Positions 2,573-55,653 of a stretch of 55,987 nt of DNA are shown piece after piece. Every line of letters starts with the position of its first letter. Within the stretch, counting starts at the first letter, position 1. The notes under the pieces were generated by a model, which did no database searches, was not told the origin of the DNA, and saw only the letters and a list, made by a program, of their open reading frames with translations. Both the position numbers and the translations under genes were made by a program. The stretch is from a virus (lineage: Duplodnaviria; Caudoviricetes): positions 1 through 55,987 of the IMG/VR virus record IMGVR_UViG_3300025838_000004. One strand, given 5' to 3'.

Positions 2573-3049
2573 ATGAATATTTTTTATCTTCACCCTATCT
2601 CAAGAATTTGTGCTTTATATCATTGTGATAAACATGTTGTCAAAATGATTGTAGAAACTGCACAATTATTAGCAACCGCACATCATGAACACAATCACCC
2701 GGTTACGTATAAGCCTACTCATATTAATCATCCTTCTGCTATATGGGCTAGATCATCTCGTTTACATTACAACTATTTAGTTGGTTTAGGTAAAGCTTTA
2801 TGCGCAGAGTATACAAAGCGTTATCATAAAACGCATGCTTGTGAACAGTTATACGACGGCGAATTAAAAGACCCACCACCTAGTCTTACATTTAGTGGCT
2901 GGACTAATCCACCACAATGTATGCCTGATGAATATAAACATGAAGACACGGTTACTGCATATCGTCGTTATTATCGTTATAAGCAAAATGTTATCTCTAT
3001 GAAATGGTATCAAGATAATGCATATGCACCTGATTGGATGGTTGCATGA
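2573..3049 (+). CDS. Pyrimidine-dimer DNA glycosylase / endonuclease V (DenV)-like protein
   Basis: Family signature MNIFYL....CA..HCDKHVVKMI.E.AQLL, Y+PTH.NHP..IW, and PPQCMPD+YK..D.V.AYR.YY. Confidence 0.75.
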   Translation: MNIFYLHPISRICALYHCDKHVVKMIVETAQLLATAHHEHNHPVTYKPTHINHPSAIWARSSRLHYNYLVGLGKALCAEYTKRYHKTHACEQLYDGELKDPPPSLTFSGWTNPPQCMPDEYKHEDTVTAYRRYYRYKQNVISMKWYQDNAYAPDWMVA

Positions 3050-3477
3050 ATAAGTGGGATCAACGTTATTTAGATCTTGCCAAGTATATCTCAACTTGGT
3101 CTAAAGACCCGTCTACCAAGTGTGGTGCTGTTATTACTGACAAGTATAACAGAATTATTAGCACTGGGTTTAATGGTTTTCCTCAAGGCATACAAGATGA
3201 TGACAGGCTTAAAGATAGAAATACAAAGTATGAAATGATTGTGCATGCTGAGCAAAATTCTATTTTGTTTGCTAAACAAGATCTACATAGTTGCTCAATT
3301 TACACATGGCCATACCAACCTTGCTCTGTTTGTGCGGCAGTTATTGTACAAGCAGGCATACAAAGAGTAATTTCACCACAGATCTCTGCTAAAAGATGGG
3401 AAGTGTCATTTAAATTAGCAAATGATATGTTTAAAGAAGCAAACGTAGAAACTACATACATAGGACAAAAATCATGA
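3046..3477 (+). CDS. dCMP deaminase
   Basis: SKDPSTKCGAVI, GFNG, HAE and PCxxC zinc deaminase motifs; start chosen at the ATGA overlap. Confidence 0.93.
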   Translation: MNKWDQRYLDLAKYISTWSKDPSTKCGAVITDKYNRIISTGFNGFPQGIQDDDRLKDRNTKYEMIVHAEQNSILFAKQDLHSCSIYTWPYQPCSVCAAVIVQAGIQRVISPQISAKRWEVSFKLANDMFKEANVETTYIGQKS

Positions 3478-4599: not shown

Positions 4600-4737
4600 A
4601 TGCCAACAAGACAAGAATTAATACTACAATTTATGCTTCAAATAGCAGCAAATGGCTCTGTTCAGGTCACAGATGCAAAGTATGTACATAATATTGCATG
4701 TAATTTAGCTGACCAATATATTAAGAACCAAGCGTAA
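4600..4737 (+). CDS. Small hypothetical protein (45 aa, MPTRQELILQFML...)
   Basis: Manual ORF with AAGGA RBS; TAATG overlap with polA. Confidence 0.65.
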   Translation: MPTRQELILQFMLQIAANGSVQVTDAKYVHNIACNLADQYIKNQA

Positions 4738-6557
4738 TGACTGATCCTATCTTTTTAGACTTTGAAACAGAAGCCATTGGGCCTAGACCGGAACACTATC
4801 CGCCTAAGCCGGTTGGCTTGGCTGTTTTAGATCGAACAGGTCAGTTTAAGTCAGGTTATTACTCGTTTTGTCATGATTCAGGTAATAACACAACTTATTC
4901 TAATGTTCGTGATCTTTTAATTCGTATATGGGAGTCTGGTAGACATGTTTGTTTTCACAACGCTATGTTTGATCTTGCTGTTATTGTTGAACAGTTTCAC
5001 CTCGATTTTCCTCACCCTTCTAGGGTGCACGACACTTTGGTTCTTGCTTTCTTGTTTGACCCTTATGTCCGTTCTTTATCATTAAAAGAATTATGTGTTG
5101 AGTGGTTGAACATTAAGCCTGAAGAGCGTGATGAGCTATTTGAGTGGTTAGTACAGCACATACCTGAAGTTGCTAAGAAGCCTAAAACTGCTGGTGCATA
5201 TATTGCTCGTGGTCCTGCAAACCTTGTAGGAATGTATGCAGAGGCCGACGTTAAATTAACAGCTAAGTTATGGGACTTTACCTTATCTGTTAGAGAAACA
5301 ATGCCTGAGGCCTATCTTAGAGAAATAGAGTTAATGCCAGTACTATTAGAGAATTCCAGGTTAGGAGTTCGTGTTGATCGTGAAGGTCTGCAGTCTTGTC
5401 TTGATAAGGCAAAAGCAGATATTATACAGTGTGAGAACTGGCTGTATAAATACTTTTATGATGACACTATTAACTTTAATTCTGGTGCTCAACTCGTTCA
5501 AGTCATTCAAGCTAAAGGTTGTTATAACAAAGACAAAGAATGGCCAACGAGTGATAAAGGTACACCTCTATCGGATAAAGATACACTTGCAGATTTAGTC
5601 ACTGATACAGAGTTATCTTCTGTACTTAGACATCGAGATGTGTTGGTGAAACTTACGGGTACGTACATTGAGCCATGGCTAGAACAATCAAAACTATCAG
5701 GCAGAATTTATACAGAGTGGAACACAGTCCGTGGCGAAGCAGGAGGTACAAGAACAGGACGATTATCATCTAAGCCTACACTTCAAACAATGCCTACACG
5801 TGGCCCAAAAACTCCACTGCCCTCTGAAATTCATGATCTCATTATACCTAAAGTCAGGCAGTATATTCTACCTGATGAGGGGCATAGTATGATTGCAGCT
5901 GACTTTAATGCTCAAGAGCTTAGATTGTTTGCATATTTTGAAGACGGTAAACTTAAAGAGCAATACTTAAAAGACCCTAAAGCAGACCTTCACACATTTA
6001 GTAAGAACATGATGAGTGAAAAAGTAGGTAGAGATATTCCAAGAGACTATGTGAAAACGTTATCATTCGGTATTCTTTATGGTGCAGGACCTAAAAAGCT
6101 GAGTGAGATGTTAAAGATACCGTATGACGAAGCTCGTGAACTTGTTGATCTTTATAAATCAGAAGTTGCTACAGGTCTACCAAAGATTAATGATGATTTA
6201 ATGACTAGATATAGAGCAAAAATACCATTTAAGACAATAGGTGGTAGACTCATTAAAGGTGAACCGCCTAAGATGATTCATGGTAAGTTCATGGAGTTTG
6301 GCTTTAAGTCTTTAAATACACTTATCCAAGGTAGTGGTGCTGATATGACAAAGCAAGCAATGATTAATTTTGCTAAAATAGCAGACAGATCTAGATTGTT
6401 ATTGTCTTTACATGATGAGATTGTTATTTCATGTGAAAAAGGGTATGAAGAACGTGAAGCAAAGAAATTAGAAGAGTGTATGATGTATGCATTTAAACTT
6501 GATGTGCCATTTATTGCAGAGGCAGTAATTGGAAATAACTTTAGCGAGGTGAAATAA
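4737..6557 (+). CDS. polA: DNA polymerase family A with 3'-5' exonuclease
   Basis: ExoI DFET, ExoII HNAMFD, ExoIII YAEAD; TGRLSS, motif A DFNAQELR, motif B RxxxKxxxFGILYG, motif C HDEI. Confidence 0.96.
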   Translation: MTDPIFLDFETEAIGPRPEHYPPKPVGLAVLDRTGQFKSGYYSFCHDSGNNTTYSNVRDLLIRIWESGRHVCFHNAMFDLAVIVEQFHLDFPHPSRVHDTLVLAFLFDPYVRSLSLKELCVEWLNIKPEERDELFEWLVQHIPEVAKKPKTAGAYIARGPANLVGMYAEADVKLTAKLWDFTLSVRETMPEAYLREIELMPVLLENSRLGVRVDREGLQSCLDKAKADIIQCENWLYKYFYDDTINFNSGAQLVQVIQAKGCYNKDKEWPTSDKGTPLSDKDTLADLVTDTELSSVLRHRDVLVKLTGTYIEPWLEQSKLSGRIYTEWNTVRGEAGGTRTGRLSSKPTLQTMPTRGPKTPLPSEIHDLIIPKVRQYILPDEGHSMIAADFNAQELRLFAYFEDGKLKEQYLKDPKADLHTFSKNMMSEKVGRDIPRDYVKTLSFGILYGAGPKKLSEMLKIPYDEARELVDLYKSEVATGLPKINDDLMTRYRAKIPFKTIGGRLIKGEPPKMIHGKFMEFGFKSLNTLIQGSGADMTKQAMINFAKIADRSRLLLSLHDEIVISCEKGYEEREAKKLEECMMYAFKLDVPFIAEAVIGNNFSEVK

Positions 6558-6868: not shown

Positions 6869-7137
6869 CTAAAATGAGCCAATTACAAAGACAATTATTA
6901 AGTGGTGGAGGTGGAGTAACTCTCTTTACACAACAAGAATTTGATGAAGCTTTAGCACTTGCCAAAGCTGAGATCATGGCAGTTGCTATACAAACCACTA
7001 AGCAAGCTATTTTAATTGAACGAGAAGAATGTGCAAAGATTGCTGAAGAATGGTCAGATGGTGTCACTGACCCTGAAAGTAAAGCAAAAGAAGTAGCAGA
7101 ACTTATTCGCAACCGTATACCAAGTCAGAGGAATTAG
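6865..7137 (+). CDS. Hypothetical protein (EREECAKIAE motif)
   Basis: ATGA overlap; ERE.CA motif frequent in small phage proteins. Confidence 0.75.
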   Translation: MTKMSQLQRQLLSGGGGVTLFTQQEFDEALALAKAEIMAVAIQTTKQAILIEREECAKIAEEWSDGVTDPESKAKEVAELIRNRIPSQRN

Positions 7138-7776
7138 ATGATCTATTCATATTCCACTGTTAAGATGTACGAGCAATGCCCTCGTAAATTCAAGTTTAGC
7201 AAAATAGATAAACTACCTGATTCATCAGGAGATGCTGCCAATAGAGGTAAACTCATTCATGCAGAGATTGAAGCACTATTGAATGGTGGTCTTCCTGTTT
7301 TTTCTGATGAAGTAATTTATTTAGAAGATAAACTTTCAAGATGGGTACAGCTTAAAGCAGCATCTGAAATGTCCATTGCAGTTGATGAAAACTTTAATGC
7401 AGTTCTTTATTCTGACCCTAAAGCAAAGTTTCGTGGTGTGATTGATTTGTATTATGAACAAGGTCCTGAAGCTACTATTGTTGACTTTAAAACAGGTAAA
7501 CATCGTGATTATTCAGACCAAGTCACTGTATATGCAGCAATGATCATGTCATGTAAACCGCATATCGAGTATGTGAAAACAGCAATTGAGTTTATTGACC
7601 TTGCAAAAACTGATGAGTATAAACTTATTACTAGATCTGATCTTCCTGTGCTTCAATTACGAATTAAAAATAGATTAAAAGCTCTTGAAAAAGATAAAAT
7701 TTATGCGCCTAATCCATCTTACTTATGTAATTACTGCCATTATAGAAAATCAAATGGTGGACCGTGTAAATGGTAG
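7138..7776 (+). CDS. PD-(D/E)XK exonuclease (RecB/Cas4-like)
   Basis: SYS..YEQCP, G..IH, GVID, IVDFKTG, Q...YA, and C-terminal CxxC...C. Confidence 0.9.
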   Translation: MIYSYSTVKMYEQCPRKFKFSKIDKLPDSSGDAANRGKLIHAEIEALLNGGLPVFSDEVIYLEDKLSRWVQLKAASEMSIAVDENFNAVLYSDPKAKFRGVIDLYYEQGPEATIVDFKTGKHRDYSDQVTVYAAMIMSCKPHIEYVKTAIEFIDLAKTDEYKLITRSDLPVLQLRIKNRLKALEKDKIYAPNPSYLCNYCHYRKSNGGPCKW

Positions 7777-8066
7777 AAAAAGTATTAGAACGTGATCTTG
7801 AAAGACATTTTAGTAAAGAATGTAAACGATTAAAAATCACAAGTCTTAAACTTCATCTTCGATACAGCACAGGTTATCCTGATCGATTAGTGATACTTCC
7901 ATTTAATAAAGTGTTATGGATAGAGTTAAAGACGCTTACAGGTAAATTATCAGCAAGACAAGAACAAATCCATTTTCAATTACGATTACATCATCATTGT
8001 GTACTTGTACTAAGAACAAAAGAGGAGATTACGAATGCTTTGGAAACCGCATCAATATCAGCATAA
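7770..8066 (+). CDS. VRR-NUC domain nuclease
   Basis: LERDLE, GYPDRL, WIELK..GKLS..Q. Confidence 0.9.
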   Translation: MVEKVLERDLERHFSKECKRLKITSLKLHLRYSTGYPDRLVILPFNKVLWIELKTLTGKLSARQEQIHFQLRLHHHCVLVLRTKEEITNALETASISA

Positions 8067-9462
8067 CGCAGTACAATTCATGCTTGAAAATGGTTCAGGT
8101 CAGTTATGGTTAGAGCCTGGATTAGGAAAAACTAGTATCACATTAGAAGCAATTCGTCAACTTAAAGACTCAGGTGCAGTTAAAAAAGTATTGATTGTAG
8201 CGCCATTAAGACCATGTTATGCAGTATGGCCTGATGAAGTAAAGAAATGGGATAATTTTCATGAATTAACAGTGAGTGTTCTTCATGGTTTTCATAAAGA
8301 CAAAACACTACATGATAAATCATTAATCCATGTGATTAACTTTGAAGGCTTACAATGGTTATCAGCAACCTTGAGAAGGTTGAACATTAAAATGCCATAT
8401 GATATGTTGGTGGTTGATGAAATAAGTTATTTAAAAAACACCAGGACCCAAAGATTCAAGTCTTTAAATCCTTTACTTGATCAGTTTAAAAGACGTTTTG
8501 GATTAACAGGGTCACCTGCGCCGAATGGATTAATGGATATATTTGGTCCACAATTAGTAATTGATAGAGGTGCCACATTTGGTAAATACATTACTCACTT
8601 TAGAGCAAATTATTTCTATCCTACAGGCTATGGTGGATACACATGGGCATTACAATCAGATGCAGAAGAAAAAATCTATGAAGCGCTTGCAGGTAAAGTT
8701 CTTCGTATGGCTGCAAAAGACTATTTAGATCTTCCTGAGCTAATTACAAATAAAGTATATGTAGACCTTCCAACTGATGCAAGAAAAATGTATAAAGAAC
8801 TTGAAGACAAATTACTTACAGACATAGATCTCGGTCAGGTAACAGCAGCAACGGCTGCAGTGGCAATTGGTAAATGTCAGCAAATTGCAAATGGGGCAGT
8901 ATACTTAGACGGTGATGAAAGACATGTCAAAATTGTGCATGAAGCTAAACTTGATGCAGTAAAAGATATTGTAGAAGAATTATCAGGTCAACCATGTCTT
9001 ATTGGTTATCATTTTAAGCATGATTTAGATCAGTTAAAGACAATATTTCCTCATGCACCTGTCATTGGATCAGGCGTTTCAGGCGATAAGCTTACTAAGA
9101 TTATTAATGTTTGGAATGCAGGAAAAACGCCTGTACTTCTTGCACACCCACAATCTGCCGGACATGGTCTTAATTTACAAGGTGCAGGACATGCTGTGAT
9201 CTGGTTTAGTAATACATGGTCTCTTGAAATCTATGAGCAATTTGTAAGACGTCTATGGCGCCAAGGGCAGCGAAATAACATTATTGTGCACCAGATCATT
9301 GCTCGTAAAACAGTTGATGAGGCTATTGTAAAAGCAATCGAATCTAAAGACAAGACACAGCAAAGTCTGATGAATGCAATAAAAGATTATGCAGCTGTTT
9401 CACATGATGAAAGTAAAGTGGTTACTTTTATTAAAAAATGTGGTACTATGTTTAGGCAGTAA
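8035..9462 (+). CDS. SNF2-family DNA helicase
   Basis: PGLGKT Walker A, VVDEIS Walker B, LTGSP, HPQSAGHGLNLQ, RLWRQGQ. Confidence 0.93.
   Translation: MLWKPHQYQHNAVQFMLENGSGQLWLEPGLGKTSITLEAIRQLKDSGAVKKVLIVAPLRPCYAVWPDEVKKWDNFHELTVSVLHGFHKDKTLHDKSLIHVINFEGLQWLSATLRRLNIKMPYDMLVVDEISYLKNTRTQRFKSLNPLLDQFKRRFGLTGSPAPNGLMDIFGPQLVIDRGATFGKYITHFRANYFYPTGYGGYTWALQSDAEEKIYEALAGKVLRMAAKDYLDLPELITNKVYVDLPTDARKMYKELEDKLLTDIDLGQVTAATAAVAIGKCQQIANGAVYLDGDERHVKIVHEAKLDAVKDIVEELSGQPCLIGYHFKHDLDQLKTIFPHAPVIGSGVSGDKLTKIINVWNAGKTPVLLAHPQSAGHGLNLQGAGHAVIWFSNTWSLEIYEQFVRRLWRQGQRNNIIVHQIIARKTVDEAIVKAIESKDKTQQSLMNAIKDYAAVSHDESKVVTFIKKCGTMFRQ
9398..9449 (+). promoter_or_regulatory. Promoter inside the helicase 3' end driving the nucleotide cluster: 15-bp palindrome plus extended -10 TGTGGTACTAT
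   Basis: TTTCACATGATGAAA at 9398-9412, -10 at 9444-9449, then AAACACTTAACTAAGGAG leader identical to the one before 2573. Confidence 0.65.
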
Positions 9463-9483
9463 ACACTTAACTAAGGAGAATTA

Positions 9484-9732
9484 ATGAAAGCATTTCCATG
9501 TATTAGTTTAATTAATAAAAAAGAAGAATTAGGTATGGATTTAAGAGACTATTTTGCAGGACAAGCAGTTATAGGATTATTATCAGCAATAGGCCAATAT
9601 ACAACAGGTTTTCCTCAAGGTACAAGTTTTGCAGAGATCACTGCATATGATGCATATTGGATTGCAGATGCAATGTTAGAAATGAGAAAAAACACATCTG
9701 AACAACTTGATCAAATAGGAAATAAACGATGA
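9484..9732 (+). CDS. Conserved phage protein (GMxLRDYFA..A family)
   Basis: AFP...GMDLRDYFAGQA...AY.IADAML motif. Confidence 0.85.
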   Translation: MKAFPCISLINKKEELGMDLRDYFAGQAVIGLLSAIGQYTTGFPQGTSFAEITAYDAYWIADAMLEMRKNTSEQLDQIGNKR

Positions 9733-10181
9733 CTAAGAATCCATATATTTATATAGCAGGCCCATTCTTTAATGACTGGGAATTAGGTGTCATTGAACGA
9801 ATTAAGATGATTATTGAAACATATAACTTTAAATACTTTAGTCCTAAAGACGAACTGATGTATAAACCAGGCGTAACAACCCCTGAAGACATACTTAGAG
9901 CAAATGTTAATGGTCTAATGAAATCAGATTTATTGATTGTAGTTACTGACGGTAAGGATCCAGGCACAATGTTCGAGGCCGGCTGGGCATATGCTAAAGG
10001 TGTTCCTATGATCTATATGTGGCTTACAGGAACAAAGGAACAGAAGTTCAATGTAATGTTAGCAGCCACTGGTTCTGTGGTTAGATCATTTAATCAGTTA
10101 TTTGAAGCACTTGATGACATTAGAGATACAGGCGAATTTCATCGTAAAATTTGGGGAGAAGGAGGAATGATGTATGAATAA
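9729..10181 (+). CDS. Nucleoside 2'-deoxyribosyltransferase-fold nucleotide N-glycosidase (NDT/MilB/DNPH1-like)
   Basis: YIAGPFF, D.GT.FE.GWAYA.G.P and FNVM motifs. Confidence 0.85.
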   Translation: MTKNPYIYIAGPFFNDWELGVIERIKMIIETYNFKYFSPKDELMYKPGVTTPEDILRANVNGLMKSDLLIVVTDGKDPGTMFEAGWAYAKGVPMIYMWLTGTKEQKFNVMLAATGSVVRSFNQLFEALDDIRDTGEFHRKIWGEGGMMYE

Positions 10182-10680
10182 AGAGGATCATGATTTCTTT
10201 ATGCGTAGTTATTCATTAGAACATACTAAGCGTTACTCAATGAAACCTGTGATTCACTCTGAATCAGTAGCTACTCATAGTTATTTCGTAGCACTTGGTG
10301 TATTGATGATGTCTAAAGACTATGATTTTGATGTTGATCTTGCAATGAAAATTGCTATATGTCATGATCTTGCAGAGATGGAAATTAGTGATGTTAATCA
10401 CTTAGTTAAAAAGAATTTTCCACAAGTTGCTATTGCACTTAAAACTGCAGAAGAAGAAATTGTCAATAATTTTCCTGATCAAGTAAAAGAATACTGCCAT
10501 TTGTACCATGATGAAACGCCAGAAGCACTTGTAGTACATTATTGCGATGCATTTCAATGCTACCAATATGCAATGAATGAGATTAATATGGGAAATGGCG
10601 GTTACATGGTTGATGTTAGAGATAATAGCTTAATACGTATGGCAAAATTAGCAACTAAACTAGAGGCGTATAAAGTATGA
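10174..10680 (+). CDS. HD-domain deoxynucleotide phosphohydrolase (YfbR/DatZ-like)
   Basis: RYS...ESVATHSY, ICHDLAE..SD and V..CD motifs. Confidence 0.88.
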   Translation: MNKEDHDFFMRSYSLEHTKRYSMKPVIHSESVATHSYFVALGVLMMSKDYDFDVDLAMKIAICHDLAEMEISDVNHLVKKNFPQVAIALKTAEEEIVNNFPDQVKEYCHLYHDETPEALVVHYCDAFQCYQYAMNEINMGNGGYMVDVRDNSLIRMAKLATKLEAYKV

Positions 10681-10955
10681 CAACAACTGATGATGTAATT
10701 ACTGAACGTGGTAATGTCTATGGTGATTTTCATGAAGGCATTATGCTGGAAACGATTATCATTGAGTCAATTAAATTTAGACACCAAGAACATCACGGTA
10801 AACAAATGCCACCTGAGTTTGTGATGTATATGACTAAAATTGCTATGAAATTATCAAGATTAGCCATTACACCGAACCATATAGATAGCTGGACCGATAT
10901 TGCAGGATATGCAAGACTTGTTGAATTACACTTAAAGAAAGAAGAAAATGCCTAA
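10677..10955 (+). CDS. DUF6378-like protein
   Basis: ERG..YGDF, K.SR...P.H.DSW.DIAGYA.L. Confidence 0.8.
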   Translation: MTTTDDVITERGNVYGDFHEGIMLETIIIESIKFRHQEHHGKQMPPEFVMYMTKIAMKLSRLAITPNHIDSWTDIAGYARLVELHLKKEENA

Positions 10956-11877
10956 AGTAACTAAAGATAAAATGCCTCATTTACAAAAGATGCACACCGA
11001 ATTAAAGTTCGGTAAACAACCTGGACCATTGCAATTTGTAAACCAACTTACTGCAATTGATGTCAAGATTGTGCATGCACCAACAGTTGCAGAGCTTCGT
11101 AAAACGATCTCTGTATTCTTAATGAATACATGGAATGATAAGATTCAGTGGACTTTTCCTGAAGAAGACATAGATCAGACCATTGACGAATTGTTTCGTT
11201 ATGAATTACTACCCACTGCGATGGAAACGATCAATCTGACGTGGTCCGTAAATGGTATGGATATGATCGATACAACACATCTGATACGTCATCGCTTGTT
11301 TAGCTTTGCGGCACAAGTACATGGTGATCGTGATATGAGAGATGATAGAGTAATGGTAAAACCCTCTATTATGGCTAACCCTGAATTTTTTGATAGATAC
11401 AGAAAGATAACTCAAGATGCTAGACAACTTTATATCGATATGCTTGATAGTGGGCTTGTGCATGGTCTCGATACCCGTACTATTATGCCTCGTAATTTTG
11501 AGCATTTTTATATGGTTCGCTGCACAATTAAAGACCTTATTGGTTATTGTGTTATGCGTGGTGATGAACAAATTCAAACAACAGTAGATAACATTATTGC
11601 AATGAAACTATGGTTAGAAGTATTAAAGATCTACCCATTCCTAAAAGGATTAGTTGACTTTAGAAAACCTGATGCATTTTATCAAAGACAATCTGCTAAA
11701 GGTAAAACAAATATCTTTCCACCTAATGCAAAGAACGATAACTTTGATTGGTGTGAAGAACAGTTTTACCACCCTATTGGAAGAGATGAATTCCCAGGCG
11801 GTGATGTCTATTTAAAAATACGAGAAGACTTATTAAGTCAAATTGATGCAATAGAAAAAAGGCATATACATGAGTGA
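10948..11877 (+). CDS. Divergent ThyX-like flavin-dependent thymidylate synthase homologue
   Basis: HLIRHRLFSF, Y..M.DSG, R.I.P.N and downstream MR align with the ThyX fold; the RHRx7SxR motif is degenerate (RHRLFSFAAQVHGD). Confidence 0.85.
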   Translation: MPKVTKDKMPHLQKMHTELKFGKQPGPLQFVNQLTAIDVKIVHAPTVAELRKTISVFLMNTWNDKIQWTFPEEDIDQTIDELFRYELLPTAMETINLTWSVNGMDMIDTTHLIRHRLFSFAAQVHGDRDMRDDRVMVKPSIMANPEFFDRYRKITQDARQLYIDMLDSGLVHGLDTRTIMPRNFEHFYMVRCTIKDLIGYCVMRGDEQIQTTVDNIIAMKLWLEVLKIYPFLKGLVDFRKPDAFYQRQSAKGKTNIFPPNAKNDNFDWCEEQFYHPIGRDEFPGGDVYLKIREDLLSQIDAIEKRHIHE

Positions 11878-12109
11878 AAGATGGTCAGTATATCAGTATA
11901 AGTTAAGTCAAAAGACTCATCAACAACGACTTCAGTTCTATCTTGATTTCTGTAAGCAACACCCTAAGCTTACAGAAAGAGTAAAGAGTGCATTATATGT
12001 TGTAGCAGTGAACTTAGAAACACAAAGTTTTACTGCAGAGATGTCAGGTCTTCCTAAACAAGTAGTGAATCGAGTAATTCGTAAGTTTAGAGACTTCTTA
12101 CCTTTTTAA
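11870..12109 (+). CDS. Small putative HTH DNA-binding protein (TrfB/KorA-like)
   Basis: ALYVVAVNLETQSFTAEMSGLPKQVVNRVIRK resembles the A..VLV.G..Q...A...G.....V...V.R HTH pattern. Confidence 0.5.
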   Translation: MSERWSVYQYKLSQKTHQQRLQFYLDFCKQHPKLTERVKSALYVVAVNLETQSFTAEMSGLPKQVVNRVIRKFRDFLPF

Positions 12110-13363
12110 CTTATCACTAAGATATTCATAACCTTCGTAGCCTAGGTATGGCAGTTGCATACCTAGTCCTACACCTCTTGCAAGTGGGTGAGGAACAGCA
12201 CTTAATACACCTCCTGCACCACTGATTGCTTCAAGTGCACCTTTTAGCTTTTCACCTTTTTGCCAGTCTTCAATGCCTTGAAGACCTTGAATAGTGCCTA
12301 ACCCACCACCTACTGTAGGAAGCACATGACGAAGAACAGGGTTAGCATTCATTGCTGCATTTGCTTTAGCAAGTACGTCCATAGCTTCTTGGCCATATGG
12401 TATTTTAGCAATGGTTTTACCAATAATAGATGGTTGATCAGTTGCCTTACTTAGTCTGTCTAATGCTTGCTGTCTTTGTATATCAGCCTCTGTTAATTTC
12501 TTAGCAGCTTCTTTTTTACCTTCAGGTACAGCACTCTTTAATTCTTCAAGTTGCTTACCGATTTTATGAGTAATCTCTGCATGACTATCATGCTCTGCTT
12601 TTGCAAGATCATATGCTCTTTTAGCAAGTCTTTGCTCACCAGGCGTAACTCCTTGTACAGGTGGTTTATAAAGTTCACCTTCTAGTTCACCTGAAAGACG
12701 ATAGTCACCAAGACCTAGTGCTTTTTGTTTAGCTGCTGCAATTCTATTCTTCTCAGCAATTTGCCATGCAGATGTGCCTTGCTCATTTGCTTTAGACATG
12801 TCTTCAACTTGTGTAAGTAGCTTATGCGGTATCTTTTCACCTGGAATGACTGCACCATAGTTATAGCTCATTGGCGCACCTGCAACTTTTCTTTCACCAA
12901 GATCAAGTGCATCAAGCATTGTGGCTCTATGTGTTGCTTCATTTAACTTATCTTTAAGCATTGATAATTTAGCTACATGATCATCATGCACATTTTGTAA
13001 TTGCTCTATGCTGTTTAAATGTAGTCTATTAATATTATCTAAGCTTTTTTGATATGAGTTCTTTGCAATCTCTGCATCAGATAACTTTGTTGTAGCTTCT
13101 TGAAACTCAGGTCTCATGTAATCAGGTTGAGGACCTTTTTTAAGTAGCATCTCACCTGCACCTGCACCTAATGCTGCAGGAATAACTGATTCAACTGAAT
13201 TAATCGTAGGAGAACTAAGAGTGACTGTTCCTTTAGGCTCTGATTGTGATGTGTCTTGTGCTACAGAAGAAATGGCAGGTGCAGGAGGTTCATCAAAAAT
13301 ACCTGCATAGTGTTCTGAAGGTATTTCAGGTTGTGACTGCTGATCAGTATTTTTAGGGTCCAT
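12098..13363 (-). CDS. Putative internal virion/ejected protein
   Basis: Last gene of the structural arm; coiled coils and Gly-rich hydrophobic C-terminus. Confidence 0.6.
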   Translation of the reverse strand: MDPKNTDQQSQPEIPSEHYAGIFDEPPAPAISSVAQDTSQSEPKGTVTLSSPTINSVESVIPAALGAGAGEMLLKKGPQPDYMRPEFQEATTKLSDAEIAKNSYQKSLDNINRLHLNSIEQLQNVHDDHVAKLSMLKDKLNEATHRATMLDALDLGERKVAGAPMSYNYGAVIPGEKIPHKLLTQVEDMSKANEQGTSAWQIAEKNRIAAAKQKALGLGDYRLSGELEGELYKPPVQGVTPGEQRLAKRAYDLAKAEHDSHAEITHKIGKQLEELKSAVPEGKKEAAKKLTEADIQRQQALDRLSKATDQPSIIGKTIAKIPYGQEAMDVLAKANAAMNANPVLRHVLPTVGGGLGTIQGLQGIEDWQKGEKLKGALEAISGAGGVLSAVPHPLARGVGLGMQLPYLGYEGYEYLSDKLKR

Positions 13364-44740: not shown

Positions 44741-46177
44741 TTAGACTGCATATGGGTTTTCAGCTCTTTTATTATAGTCGTCATCGATATAGTCATTTGA
44801 CTGTTGTACAAAATGATCGATCACAATAATGTTCGCATCCCTTAGGTAGCGTAGTGCTTGAGTCAGTGCGTCCACATAGTCGTCATGCCGACCTAATGGA
44901 AAACTACAGATCTCTGACAGGAACGGCTGTATCCACGTTCTGGCCTGTCCTGGATGCTCAGTCGACTCCGGCAAATACAGTAACCCTTTCTCGATCATCG
45001 GGGCAATAATGTTCAGTCTGGTTGCTTTATCAGCATTTCCTGGGTTATATCCTCTGATCGGAATACGAGTCTTCTGAAGGTCCTGAATGAGTGCTATACC
45101 ACTTGATTTGTTCTCTACAAGGACTAAGTCCACCTTCTTACCACTACCAAACTCGTCTGGATCTCCATAGATCTCCTCAAACTCTTCTTTTAACTTAGAC
45201 CGTAAGTCTGGGTACAAGAGCCGCTCTGACCAACAGTCAATGAGCATGACACGATTCCCCTTATCCTCTGATGGTCTAAACACGCCTAACACTACACACG
45301 CAGTCGGGTCATTGATCTGCTTGTCGGACGCTGCACAGTCGTAGGACTGAATCACATATGAAAACTCTGGAAACGGTCGGTCTGCATCCCACAGCTCAAA
45401 CCATGATCGTTTTACAAGACCAGACTCTTCTGGGTCGAGAATCTCTGCATGTATCTCTTGGCGGCCGAGGCTTGTTCCTTCATACTGCATAATCTGATTC
45501 TGAAAGTTCGGTGCTAGGTTATGCAAGTTTGAGTACGTAGAAGCTGTGGTCACATGCACGTCCTCACCATCTCTATCGTTTAACTCTACTATTTTCGGTA
45601 CAGGCTTCGGAGTAGTAGTGCACACCATACGTGGCGTTTTACCGAGACGAAGACTGAACTGTATCATGTCCCATGCCTCATCCAGATAGTCCCAAGCGGC
45701 AAGCTCGTCAGCCCATACATGGTGCCACTGAGGACCACGGAAACGGCTAGGCTCGGATGCTGCGATTCCTTTAATTAAAGACCCATTCTTAAGAGTAAGC
45801 TCATGAAGCGATATTCCGTAGTTCTGTATAATCTCAGGCGGTGTCACATTTAGCAGACCAGAGTCTCCATTAAAACACACATCACGTATATCTCCTGAGG
45901 TTGGTGCTGATACAAGTATACGACTACCTGGCTCATTCCAAGCCTTCCACCATGTCCACTCTGCTGCTAATCGTGTCTTTCCTGCTCCTCGGCCTGCAAG
46001 GAGCAACCACACTGACCAATCGGTCGGCGGTTCTATCTGGTGCGGTAGAGCAATCGTTAACCACTTCAATCGGGCTTTAAATGCTGCTCTCCACTCTGGC
46101 GACATTTGACTAAGCTCTTTATCGTGCTTCTGAATTCGCTCTGCCACTTTTTGAATCTGTTGTTCGGTAAGAGGCAT
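44741..46177 (-). CDS. terL: Terminase large subunit
   Basis: AGRGAGKT Walker A, RGPQ, WADE Walker B, TTTP, RQE..AE; nuclease SYD, DPTA and HDDYVDA. Confidence 0.95.
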   Translation of the reverse strand: MPLTEQQIQKVAERIQKHDKELSQMSPEWRAAFKARLKWLTIALPHQIEPPTDWSVWLLLAGRGAGKTRLAAEWTWWKAWNEPGSRILVSAPTSGDIRDVCFNGDSGLLNVTPPEIIQNYGISLHELTLKNGSLIKGIAASEPSRFRGPQWHHVWADELAAWDYLDEAWDMIQFSLRLGKTPRMVCTTTPKPVPKIVELNDRDGEDVHVTTASTYSNLHNLAPNFQNQIMQYEGTSLGRQEIHAEILDPEESGLVKRSWFELWDADRPFPEFSYVIQSYDCAASDKQINDPTACVVLGVFRPSEDKGNRVMLIDCWSERLLYPDLRSKLKEEFEEIYGDPDEFGSGKKVDLVLVENKSSGIALIQDLQKTRIPIRGYNPGNADKATRLNIIAPMIEKGLLYLPESTEHPGQARTWIQPFLSEICSFPLGRHDDYVDALTQALRYLRDANIIVIDHFVQQSNDYIDDDYNKRAENPYAV

Positions 46178-54420: not shown

Positions 54421-54701
54421 CACCTATTCAATGGCACAGAAAAAGAACTAAAGCAAATATGCCGCATGTGGCAGAATCAATGCTTGATTTAATGAACGAA
54501 CACGGACCTGTTCGAATTACCGAGTTTATCGAAACAGTAGAAAAAGATGCACTAGGTTCAAGAGCGCATTTGTACTTTAATTTAAACTGGCTTCGTGAAC
54601 ATGGCTATGTAAAAGCCACGAGCCCTGTAAATAATCTTCGTGTAAAAGAAGTAAGTATTACAGCTAAAGGTTTACGTTACTTAGAGAATGATCATGGATA
54701 G
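54417..54701 (+). CDS. Winged-helix (MarR-like) DNA-binding protein
   Basis: S...L...L..L...GYV......R.K.V.IT.KG..YL. Confidence 0.7.
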   Translation: MTPIQWHRKRTKANMPHVAESMLDLMNEHGPVRITEFIETVEKDALGSRAHLYFNLNWLREHGYVKATSPVNNLRVKEVSITAKGLRYLENDHG

Positions 54702-55125
54702 TATCTCTTCTAAAGAGTATGACCATTGGAAACATGAGAGCACTAAAAAACAAGTTCGTCATCTTACTTGGTATCATGTGAATGAGCTTGTTGATACACT
54801 CGAAGCCAACATTAGAAAAGCAAAGTATCATTATGAGTTAATTGTAGGTGTCACAAGAGGTGGTTTGGTTCCTGCAGTGATGCTAAGTCATCGTCTTAAA
54901 CTTCCGATGATGGCAATCACACCACGAACATTGATACCTATCACAAAAAGATGCCTCGTGATTGATGAGATCTACGATACTGGTGATACGATTAAACAAA
55001 TTAAAGAAGTAAACCCAGGCATTCACGTCGGTGTTTTGTTTCATAATGAAGCATTACCTGACTTAGAATACTTTGCAACCAAGGATCCTTTGAATCAATG
55101 GATCGTCTTTCCGTGGGAGAATTAA
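54688..55125 (+). CDS. Type I phosphoribosyltransferase (Gpt-like)
   Basis: IVGVTRGGLVPA..LSH.L, LVIDEIYDTG.T PRPP loop, WIVFPWE. Confidence 0.88.
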   Translation: MIMDSISSKEYDHWKHESTKKQVRHLTWYHVNELVDTLEANIRKAKYHYELIVGVTRGGLVPAVMLSHRLKLPMMAITPRTLIPITKRCLVIDEIYDTGDTIKQIKEVNPGIHVGVLFHNEALPDLEYFATKDPLNQWIVFPWEN

Positions 55126-55126
55126 C

Positions 55127-55267
55127 ATGAAAAAGCAGTCTAATCCAATACCTGATTGGAGAAATCCTCAGTTTGTATACCATCAGTCAGTAGCTACTGA
55201 CATATTAAAAACGCTAAAGCGGTTTGGGTTTGTTCCGCCTTCAGAAAAGAAAGAACAAAAGCAATGA
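55127..55267 (+). CDS. Small hypothetical protein (46 aa)
   Basis: Manual ORF ...F.Y..S..TDI..T..RFGF.PPSE; ATGA overlap. Confidence 0.6.
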   Translation: MKKQSNPIPDWRNPQFVYHQSVATDILKTLKRFGFVPPSEKKEQKQ

Positions 55268-55653
55268 ACTCAGATATTTTTCATAAAGTGAAAGAGTTTC
55301 GAACGAAACTGAATTTACCGACTAATACTAAGCCTCAACTCCTTAAGCCCGAGGATATTAGTTTTTATGCTCGTTTTATTATGGAAGAGCTAAGTGAGTT
55401 GATGAAAGCCCATGAGAAAGGGAACCTTGTAGATGCTGCTGATGCACTTGCTGATTTGTCTTATGTCACTATGGGTTGTGCTCATCATATGGGTGTTTAT
55501 CTACCTCGTGTACTTGATATTGTCCATGAAGCCAATATGCGTAAAGAGCCAGGAACCACGCAAAGAGGTTACCAACAAGATGCAATGAAACCTCAAGGGT
55601 GGATAGGACCTGAGGAGATGATTGCATTAGAGTTATTCGAGCAATGTAGATAA
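55264..55653 (+). CDS. MazG-like NTP pyrophosphatase (DR2231/PRA-PH type; probable dUTPase)
   Basis: EE..E, DALADL.YV..G, VH.ANM.K, KP.GW..P. Confidence 0.82.
   Translation: MNSDIFHKVKEFRTKLNLPTNTKPQLLKPEDISFYARFIMEELSELMKAHEKGNLVDAADALADLSYVTMGCAHHMGVYLPRVLDIVHEANMRKEPGTTQRGYQQDAMKPQGWIGPEEMIALELFEQCR

Follow-up and report, generated by a model that had tools for sequence, protein, structure and literature searches.

The complete genome of a phage of the class Caudoviricetes, IMG/VR record IMGVR_UViG_3300025838_000004 (positions 1 to 55,987, referred to below as the window; 55,987 bp, direct terminal repeats, CheckV completeness 100%), contains four overlapping genes at 9729-11877, which encode a protein of the nucleoside 2-deoxyribosyltransferase (NDT) family, an HD-domain phosphohydrolase, a DUF6378 protein and a divergent ThyX-family protein, here termed ThyXL. 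We propose, with a probability of roughly 0.5, that ThyXL makes a C5-modified, probably hydroxymethylated, pyrimidine deoxynucleoside monophosphate (dNMP), and that the HD and NDT enzymes purge the canonical one. In its fuller form, for which we put the odds slightly under even, ThyXL would be either a flavin-dependent C5 hydroxymethylase of pyrimidine dNMPs or a C5 hydroxylase that depends on O2, in both cases with an origin independent of the ThyA-fold enzymes and coupled to a two-step purge, and the outcome would be modified DNA that is glycosylated in some lineages. The evidence consists of the gene content, the changes at the ThyXL active site, the conserved linkage of the genes and the association with glycosyltransferases (GTs) in relatives, and from it we infer the substrate, the product, the direction of the HD and NDT steps and the incorporation into DNA.

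The open reading frames (ORFs) and Pfam matches confirm the four overlapping genes named in a preliminary description of this DNA, neighbouring genes in the run overlapping by 4 or 8 nt:

9729-10181, + strand: NDT-family protein, 150 aa (PF05014, 57.7 bits)
10174-10680, + strand: HD phosphohydrolase of the YfbR/HDDC2 5'-deoxynucleotidase type, 168 aa (HD_3, 62.4 bits; YfbR-like, 49.8 bits)
10677-10955, + strand: DUF6378 small helical protein, 92 aa (PF19905, 32.2 bits)
10948-11877, + strand: ThyXL, divergent ThyX-family protein, 309 aa (Thy1, 41.9 bits)

ThyXL and the Canonical ThyX Family

ThyXL scores above the gathering threshold of the Pfam Thy1 family (PF02511; 41.9 vs 24.8 bits, residues 72-230 only; 43.1 bits in the genome search) and below the cut-off of the NCBIfam thyX equivalog TIGR02170 (26.8 vs 87.9 bits). 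Together with the loss of catalytic residues, this bears out its earlier description as an atypical ThyX. A single-sequence search of the PDB reached Mycobacterium tuberculosis ThyX at E ~0.5, and hhalign against a canonical phage ThyX gave a probability of 93.9%. A HMMER search of 1.84 billion cluster representatives returned 171 matches at E<=1e-3 and 78 at <=1e-10, with proteins bearing the classical motif HQLVRHRxASYSQQSQRY, that is, canonical ThyX, appearing only at the weak end of the matches. The Atlas clusters nearest to ThyXL are 86-97% viral, 332 ThyXL relatives occur in IMG/VR, and a FastTree phylogeny separated 16/16 canonical ThyX rows from the ThyXL rows, with a basal support of 91, which lies under the program's starred level. 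As far as sequence comparison goes, ThyXL is a distinct, virus-dominated subfamily of ThyX. Used singly as queries, the distant ThyXL proteins P0143, P0161, P0158 and P0147 had no relatives in viral contigs, and P0147 had none in metagenome contigs either.

Residues were mapped by alignment to M. tuberculosis ThyX and also through a co-resident canonical phage ThyX to Thermotoga maritima ThyX, whose numbering is used for the canonical positions. Like canonical ThyX (PF02511, TIGR02170; T. maritima TM0449, M. tuberculosis ThyX), ThyXL belongs to this fold family and retains R78/H79/R80 (RHR), S83, R147 (R177 of ThyXL, within DARTIMPR) and R174 (R204 of ThyXL), of which the two substrate arginines R177 and R204 are at least 90% conserved among 49 ThyXL-family sequences. 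Unlike canonical ThyX, it is extended at both the N and the C terminus (309 aa vs ~210-230 aa), is sometimes co-resident with a canonical ThyX, and has substitutions at H53 (now Leu/Pro), E86 (Ala), S88 (Val), R90 (Gly) and Y91 (Asp). By alignment, the His53 segment GHxTPxE falls on L88/P89 of ThyXL ('LLPTAME'), where the His is absent. Instead of the canonical motif RHRxxSxxxxSxRY the window reads RHRLFSFAAQVHGDRD, in which RHR and the first Ser are kept.

The ThyXL motif is RHRxxSFSAQCxGDRDxR, with a consensus C-x-G-D at the lost positions; the S88 position is Cys in most of the family and Val in the window and its nearest clades, and an invariant Asp (D127 of ThyXL) stands where R90/Y91 were. 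In the 49-sequence alignment the GDRD motif recurs, R114 is invariant, and conservation reaches at least 90% at W62, Y162, A176, R177, R204, P230 and P259. All 80 of the close relatives fetched have an intact gene, and the lost ThyX residues appear to have been replaced by a new conserved motif, with no sign of decay. S88 and Y91 of ThyX are described as strictly conserved and critical, and have been proposed, together with R90, to serve as the acids when the methylene is transferred from the flavin carbinolamine (PMC11940539). In M. tuberculosis ThyX, S105, R107 and Y108 are dUMP ligands or part of the lid, with the Tyr forming a lid over C5 and N5 (PMC6514825). Because the nucleotide-binding arginines are kept and the methylene-transfer and lid residues are gone, we infer that ThyXL still stacks a pyrimidine nucleotide on the flavin, with other chemistry or for another base.

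The TS-type (thymidylate synthase) gene content was checked across 11 records searched whole. Canonical ThyX (119-182 bits) and ThyXL (62-73 bits) occur together in four of them (G001-G004), one of which (G001, the same record as locus L083) additionally has a ThyA-like gene and so carries three TS-type genes. A canonical ThyX also lies 2.8-4.5 kb from ThyXL in 12/12 loci of group B, a group of larger phages described below. Because the two genes are co-resident, these cases argue that canonical ThyX and ThyXL serve non-redundant functions.

As a side observation, the 515-aa protein P0122, 53% identical to the ThyXL of the window, has a C-terminal HNH/His-Me homing-endonuclease domain; mobile endonucleases target the ThyXL gene here, as they do classical TS genes. 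A search for longer ThyXL proteins found none at 619-2000 aa, a range that excludes the fusions of 515-551 aa.

Conservation of the Module

Conservation was followed in close relatives (80 loci fetched, 83-100% ThyXL identity, 69 evaluable) and in distant loci with ThyXL ~25-40% identical, of which 29 were evaluable, with >=2.5 kb on both sides. Among the evaluable close relatives NDT is present in 68/69, HD in 69/69 and DUF6378 in 69/69, a level of co-occurrence that is expected within one phage lineage. The distant loci are more telling: an NDT homologue is present in 28/29 and an HD homologue in 19/29, the latter nearly always adjoining NDT. The ten loci that have no HD all belong to group B, where a fusion of dUTPase_2 and an NT5C-like 5'(3')-deoxyribonucleotidase lies directly upstream of ThyXL (12/12 loci). 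DUF6378 was found in 1/29 (L110), directly upstream of ThyXL, and in the same position in the short, non-evaluable loci L128 and L143. The co-occurrence in relatives anticipated earlier is therefore upheld for ThyXL, NDT and a nucleotidase, which stay together in distant phages, and does not extend to HD as such (19/29) or to DUF6378 (1/29).

Gene order varies across lineages, with NDT-HD-ThyXL, ThyXL-NDT-HD, NDT-HD-kinase-ThyXL and DUF6378-ThyXL-NDT-HD all represented, and the module always lies among replication genes (polymerase, helicase, primase). A small P-loop protein resembling thymidylate kinase (TMK-like) is present in 15/29 distant loci, and an all-alpha nucleoside triphosphate (NTP) pyrophosphohydrolase, of the dUTPase_2 or PRA-PH type, in 22/29. 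Because the linkage survives rearrangement as well as the exchange of HD for an unrelated nucleotidase, the gene content argues for a functional trio of ThyXL, NDT and a dNMP 5'-nucleotidase.

The components are rare in cultured phages: of 50,697 records, 20 have an NDT homologue, seven an HD homologue and one a ThyXL. Geobacillus phage GR1 has NDT, HD and ThyXL all inside 5 kb. In Streptococcus phage vB_SagM-GXN1, NDT-HD is followed by a 411-aa 'thymidylate synthetase' that diverges even further from Thy1 (21.4 bits) and then by a fusion of a uracil-DNA glycosylase (UDG) and PolA. Literature searches, which covered mostly sources outside subscription journals, found nothing on GR1 or GXN1.

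Several neighbours in these loci are recorded as observations. The group-B fusion (e.g., L092:9075-9992; a dimeric-dUTPase-like PF08761 domain followed by an NT5C-like domain) could convert a deoxynucleoside triphosphate (dNTP) to a deoxynucleoside within one polypeptide. Proteins of ~300 aa encoded just downstream of ThyXL (L138:10846-11736, L129:11064-11978, L141:2355-3233, L083:11039-11947) combine an N-terminal thymidylate-kinase-like region (PF02223 27.6 bits; phrog_761) with a C-terminal region like the middle of ThyA (PF00303 positions 89-219; phrog_160), and look like a kinase fused to a truncated, possibly nucleotide-binding, TS-like domain. The GXN1 fusion (L144:10917-16565) is an 1882-aa ORF in which a UDG-superfamily domain at the N terminus is combined with an intein and a DNA polymerase of family A, directly after the trio, in a 176-kb record that is mostly unannotated (40 features). 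At L083:7818-9457, a short way upstream of HD-ThyXL, a UDG-superfamily gene stands between two genes of the NDT family.

Glycosyltransferases in Relatives

In T4, the alpha-glucosyltransferase glucosylates hydroxymethylcytosine (HMC) in DNA. GR1 encodes, between HD and ThyXL, a 459-aa GT whose match to phrog_2888 'alpha-glucosyltransferase' spans the whole profile (E 6e-53) and which is homologous by tblastn to the a-gt of 439 other records, nearly all of them T4-like phages of enterobacteria (~22% identity over 65%, E ~1e-5). No ThyA-family gene was found in GR1, and its ThyXL appears to be the only candidate maker of a hydroxymethyl pyrimidine in this phage. A second GT, two genes from ThyXL in L118, matches phrog_842 'beta-glucosyl-HMC-alpha-glucosyltransferase' (E 2.9e-7), with a Pfam TAGT score of 23.1 bits that is below the cut-off. 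In P0147 (551 aa) and an ORF of L123 a GT-A-like domain is fused to ThyXL itself, with a GT2 score slightly below the cut-off (22.1 bits) and a visible DxD-like HDNDLY motif. Single-sequence PDB searches with the three GT candidates gave nothing useful.

Other neighbours were noted in passing. The group-B neighbours c9 and c10, considered as GTs, turned out to be Gly/Ser-rich repeat proteins and are probably structural. An NAD-dependent sugar-nucleotide epimerase/dehydratase (PF01370, 101.7 bits) is encoded a few kb away from ThyXL in five group-B loci (including L088:12621-13607); it could make an unusual nucleoside-diphosphate sugar for DNA glycosylation or be unrelated. A SPASM/radical-SAM neighbour occurs in L120 and L135 and is absent from the window. 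In GR1 the gene directly upstream of ThyXL (L001:7256-7855) is nitroreductase/flavin-reductase-like; it may supply reduced flavin, and has no homologue in the other loci.

The NDT, HD and DUF6378 Proteins

The NDT-family protein had been described as a glycosidase of the NDT/MilB/DNPH1 fold. Its membership in the NDT family stands (Nuc_deoxyrib_tr, PF05014, 57.7 bits vs a cut-off of 28.8), but among PDB entries it is closer to true NDTs (7m5h, E 3.3e-7; 6evs, 3.6e-4) than to BlsM (0.0037) or MilB (0.18-0.9), and DNPH1 was not matched. Its residues D77, six residues before E83, and N108 correspond to the 5'-OH-binding Asp92 and Asn123 of the Lactobacillus NDT. The motifs YxAGPFF and D-x-G-T-x-x-E-x-G align with 7m5h and 6evs, and by the same alignment a catalytic triad is present, namely Y6/Y8 (YIYIAGPFF), D67 and E83 (GTMFEAG), in agreement with the Tyr / Asp(Asn) / Glu triad given for the superfamily (PMC12884076). 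The protein looks more like a nucleoside-level transferase than a MilB/DNPH1-like dNMP hydrolase, and a nucleoside substrate would fit because a 5'-nucleotidase is its constant partner.

Similarly, the HD protein, described earlier as YfbR/DatZ-like, does group with YfbR/HDDC2 (HD_3 62.4 and YfbR-like 49.8 bits; PF12917/PF13023), and the H...HD...D metal ligands are present, with H35, H64-D65, E68, D73 and D125 aligning to 1xx7/2cqz. It scores 34.6 bits against the NF003009 5'-deoxynucleotidase equivalog, which marks orthology to Escherichia coli YfbR, where the cut-off is 122, and is a member of the YfbR family but no orthologue of E. coli YfbR. The DatZ part of the description is less likely: the protein matches phrog_7076 'dATP triphosphohydrolase' (E 2.5e-11), but DatZ is absent from its PDB matches at E<=1, and it looks like a dNMP 5'-nucleotidase. 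The replacement of HD by an NT5C-like dNMP nucleotidase in group B likewise suggests that it acts on dNMPs rather than dNTPs.

DUF6378 (PF19905, 32.2 bits vs a cut-off of 27.1) occupies the slot that in other lineages holds the small TMK-like P-loop protein. No solved relative was found in the PDB, where only designed helical repeats were matched; no further Pfam family appeared up to an E of 10, the leads from the Atlas were weak (among them DUF1599 at 0.75), and no functional literature was found. A relationship to dUTPase_2 was tried and rejected (hhalign probability 0.1).

Proposed Pathway

In the proposed pathway ThyXL would bind a pyrimidine dNMP against the flavin and convert it to a C5-modified dNMP, most likely 5-hydroxymethyl-dCMP; alternative products are 5-hydroxymethyl-dUMP and a 5-hydroxy pyrimidine. 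Hydroxymethylation is favoured because of the T4-type and HMC-type GT homologues and the GT fusions, but since the folate-side His and the carbinolamine acids have been lost, an O2-dependent hydroxylase is also conceivable. For the substrate we lean towards dCMP, with dUMP, as in an SPO1-like system, as the alternative, because a canonical TS is retained alongside ThyXL in some genomes, much as in T4, because the invariant D127 replaces R90/Y91, and because the partners mirror those of T4 (a dCTPase-like NTP pyrophosphohydrolase, a dCMP deaminase and a dNMP kinase). The nucleotidase, HD or NT5C-like, would dephosphorylate the competing canonical pyrimidine dNMP to the deoxynucleoside, from which NDT would release the free base, possibly passing the deoxyribose to another base. 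Such a two-step purge would be irreversible, so that host nucleoside kinases would be unable to re-salvage the canonical nucleotide. The dCMP deaminase and a DR2231-like pyrophosphohydrolase of the same genome (listed below) would supply the pool and keep it in balance, and PolA of the phage, which would have to accept the modified dNTP, would incorporate it.

The idea that a flavin enzyme makes a non-canonical pyrimidine and that HD and NDT purge its competitor was already part of the preliminary description. The linkage, the residue losses, the co-residence with canonical ThyX, the GTs and the precedent of DmtZ (see below) strengthen it; it needs amending in that the substrate may be dCMP rather than dUMP, and the window itself has no recognisable kinase or GT.

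Comparison With Known Systems

The T4 HMC system consists of the ThyA-family dCMP hydroxymethylase gp42, the dCTPase gp56, the dNMP kinase gp1, a dCMP deaminase and the alpha- and beta-glucosyltransferases. Across its family the present module has comparable parts, namely the all-alpha NTP pyrophosphohydrolase, dCMP deaminase, TMK-like kinases, in some cases a canonical TS, and a-gt-family or HMC-GT-like GTs in GR1 and L118. In contrast to T4, the candidate synthase is of the ThyX and not the ThyA superfamily, the window itself has neither kinase nor GT, and NDT and a 5'-nucleotidase are constant partners, of which T4 has neither.

A precedent for the purge comes from the Z-genome phages, in which DmtZ, of the NDT family, hydrolyses dAMP specifically and passes its deoxyribose 5-phosphate on to the Z base, while the YfbR-like DatZ and Dut-like enzymes remove dATP; enzymes of the NDT and HD families are thus known to purge a canonical nucleotide in phages that substitute a base (PMC12884076). 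The Z systems (PurZ, DatZ, DmtZ, DpoZ) combine a synthase of a new nucleotide with HD- and NDT-family removers and a family A polymerase, a combination that the present module would share through its candidate synthase ThyXL, the putative HD and NDT removers and PolA. They differ in that the Z systems concern a purine and not a pyrimidine and rely on PurZ, which is absent here. DmtZ, moreover, is DNPH1-like and acts on dAMP directly, whereas the NDT protein here resembles nucleoside-level transferases, and the HD protein here groups with 5'-deoxynucleotidases and did not match DatZ.

Repurposed TS-superfamily enzymes offer further points of comparison. Flavin-binding ThyA homologues of RB69, DLP3 and RL38JI make 5-hydroxy-dCMP, which is then glycosylated (PMC13326640). 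They resemble the system proposed here in the repurposing of a TS superfamily, the C5 oxygen function on a pyrimidine dNMP, the decoration by GTs and the flavin, and a hydroxylase activity of ThyXL is no more than a possibility; in contrast, they have the ThyA fold, and that paper does not mention ThyX. PolB of polyoxin biosynthesis is the one neofunctionalised ThyX paralogue described (PMC5954106) and indicates that the ThyX fold is able to change substrate, but it belongs to bacterial secondary metabolism, still methylates UMP and dUMP, and has no NDT or HD partners. MilA/MilB and BcmA/BcmB likewise pair a TS-like C5-modifying enzyme, a hydroxymethylase, with an NDT-family N-glycosidase; unlike the present module, these pairs have a ThyA-fold enzyme and ribonucleotide substrates, and their product is a free base used in antibiotics; MilB is a marginal match to the NDT protein (E 0.18-0.9).

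In the literature covered, phage pathways to C5-modified pyrimidines all start from a ThyA-fold enzyme. If the proposal is right, the ThyX fold would represent a second independent origin, ThyXL would mark the first recruitment of a ThyX-fold enzyme to the modification of bases in phage DNA and would catalyse a new flavoenzyme reaction, and pool-level base substitution would have been built on a fold with no known use of this kind. NDT-family purging of canonical nucleotides would extend from purines to pyrimidines, and modified DNA would be present in a widespread freshwater phage group as well as in cultured Geobacillus and Streptococcus phages, with ThyXL as a marker gene for modified-DNA phages in metagenomes, where the family is common. 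Modified DNA bears on the evasion of restriction and CRISPR, and on enzymes for making modified DNA. Since the cultured phage GR1 carries the module, the question is directly testable. Literature searches, again mostly outside subscription journals, found no work in which the modification of phage DNA is connected with a relative of ThyX or with the NDT-HD-ThyX trio; overlap with the 'NDT-like' or TS-homologue sets in the supplements of PMC12884076 and PMC13326640 is possible.

Alternative Explanations

A number of observations weigh against a role in DNA modification. ThyXL is the sole TS-type gene in 7/11 whole records, comprising the window genome (where a whole-genome search found no ThyA gene or second Thy1 gene), GR1, four CheckV-100% genomes and one fragment, which is the pattern that would be expected of a plain thymidylate synthase; and as it keeps RHR, R147 and R174, it may bind dUMP and synthesise dTMP by an altered route. 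The window has no recognisable dNMP kinase, as the preliminary description had correctly noted: there is no small Walker-A kinase, and the sole [AG]x4GK[ST] match in ORFs >=80 aa is a 478-aa ORF at 44741-46177. It also has no GT homologue, and full substitution would rely on host kinases. Among the relatives, the NT5C assignment in the group-B fusion is weak (23.4 bits, slightly under the cut-off of 24.8), the GT2 and TAGT assignments lie just under the Pfam cut-offs, and the GR1 GT had no PDB match in a single-sequence search. Palindromes are mildly depleted in the window (CATG, 228 observed vs 301 expected) and no site is absent, which is uninformative on DNA modification and gives it no support; nor does the fact that the phage assembles from ordinary short-read metagenomes (20 studies, freshwater).

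The main alternative is ordinary thymidylate supply or salvage, in which ThyXL would be a divergent but genuine dUMP-to-dTMP synthase, HD and NDT would rebalance the nucleotide pool of an AT-rich phage, and the DNA would be canonical; dNMPs would be converted to deoxynucleosides, have their bases swapped and be re-phosphorylated by host kinases. The genome is ~61% A+T and has a dCMP deaminase and a dUTPase-like enzyme, the NDT protein resembles a true nucleoside transferase, and a purine phosphoribosyltransferase (PRTase)-like gene could recycle the released bases; the missing kinase, the Thy1 score above the Pfam cut-off, the retained RHR, R147 and R174 and the sole-TS pattern also speak for this role. 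However, H53, S88, R90 and Y91, called critical in the literature (PMC11940539), are lost, and ThyXL is below the thyX equivalog cut-off. Canonical ThyX and ThyXL are both kept in G001-G004 and in all 12 group-B loci. Relatives have homologues of T4-type DNA glucosyltransferases and GT-ThyXL fusions, which a plain TS would leave unexplained, and NDT and a nucleotidase are tied strictly to the ThyXL subfamily, a pattern that NDT and HD do not show among phages in general (20 and 7 of 50,697 records). We consider this explanation unlikely, if clearly worth weighing.

The invariant core of ThyXL, nucleotidase and NDT could also be read, in that sequence of steps, as a catabolic or release pathway, in which, in the manner of MilA/MilB and BcmA/BcmB, ThyXL modifies, HD dephosphorylates and NDT releases or transfers, to give a free modified pyrimidine base or nucleoside that serves as an antimetabolite, a signal or a substrate for another enzyme. 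TS-like and NDT-like pairs are known to yield free 5-hydroxymethylcytosine (PMC4081090), the ThyX paralogue PolB takes part in making nucleoside antibiotics (PMC5954106), and the window genome has no dNMP kinase. This is nevertheless improbable in our estimation: the TMK-like kinases of the module in 15/29 distant loci point to dNDP/dNTP and DNA, the module has a constant place among replication genes, the GR1 GT is homologous to T4 a-gt, which acts on DNA, and no base-exchange enzyme was seen. Still less probable, to the point that we give it very little weight, is that ThyXL is catalytically dead, or a regulatory or nucleotide-binding protein, within a loose set of auxiliary nucleotide genes. 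Several ThyX catalytic residues are indeed missing, and neither DUF6378 nor the small flanking ORFs could be assigned a function, but the new motif is conserved across lineages that are 25-40% identical, the gene is intact in 80/80 close relatives fetched, and the linkage to NDT and a nucleotidase is kept despite rearrangement.

Genome Setting and Other Nucleotide Enzymes

On the + strand, a Cas4-like nuclease, a small ORF and an SNF2 helicase precede the coupled gene run, which is flanked by two small ORFs:

8035-9462, + strand: SNF2 helicase (ORF and Pfam)
9484-9732, + strand: p82, small accessory ORF, 82 aa (phrog_2201, no function assigned), with a strong AAGGAGA ribosome-binding site
11870-12109, + strand: p79, small ORF, 79 aa, matching no family and overlapping the ThyXL stop

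The p79 gene, found in 46/69 evaluable close relatives, ends this run of + strand genes, ahead of a - strand structural block. In contrast, p82 is found in 2/69, and in the other 67/69 SNF2 leads directly into NDT; p82 is outside the conserved module and resembles a strain-specific insertion into an otherwise fixed gene order. A dedicated promoter had been placed at 9398-9449, but this interval lies inside the SNF2 ORF, and a sigma-70 scan of 7000-12600 found no site there and fewer sites in the region (12) than expected from shuffles (24). For these reasons, and because SNF2 directly precedes NDT in relatives, the cluster is best seen as the tail of a long replication and nucleotide operon rather than a separate unit. 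By blastn, the cluster had no match among the 50,697 cultured-phage records, and the closest cultured-phage polymerase is ~35% identical to the PolA of the window.

Profile matches confirm the other enzymes that had been assigned to this genome, namely a dCMP deaminase, a DR2231-like enzyme, a PRTase and its own PolA:

3034-3477, + strand: dCMP deaminase (dCMP to dUMP), a supporting pool enzyme (PF00383, 63.8 bits)
4737-6557, + strand: family A DNA polymerase with 3'-5' exonuclease, PolA (PF00476, 182.3 bits)
54688-55125: PRTase of the purine type (xanthine/guanine phosphoribosyltransferase models, C-terminal 60 residues only, 56.7 bits vs a cut-off of 138)
55264-55653, + strand: all-alpha MazG/PRA-PH NTP pyrophosphohydrolase, DR2231-like (PF01503, 62.1 bits; best PDB relative DR2231, E 1.8e-7)

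The DR2231-like enzyme probably converts dUTP or dCTP to the dNMP. The PRTase could, speculatively, recycle purine bases freed by NDT. DNA glycosylases (UDG, Fpg/Nei, HhH-GPD) recur close to ThyXL in distant loci, and in the window a T4 endonuclease V-like pyrimidine-dimer DNA glycosylase is encoded at 2573-3049 (PF03013, 31.1 bits), directly upstream of the dCMP deaminase.

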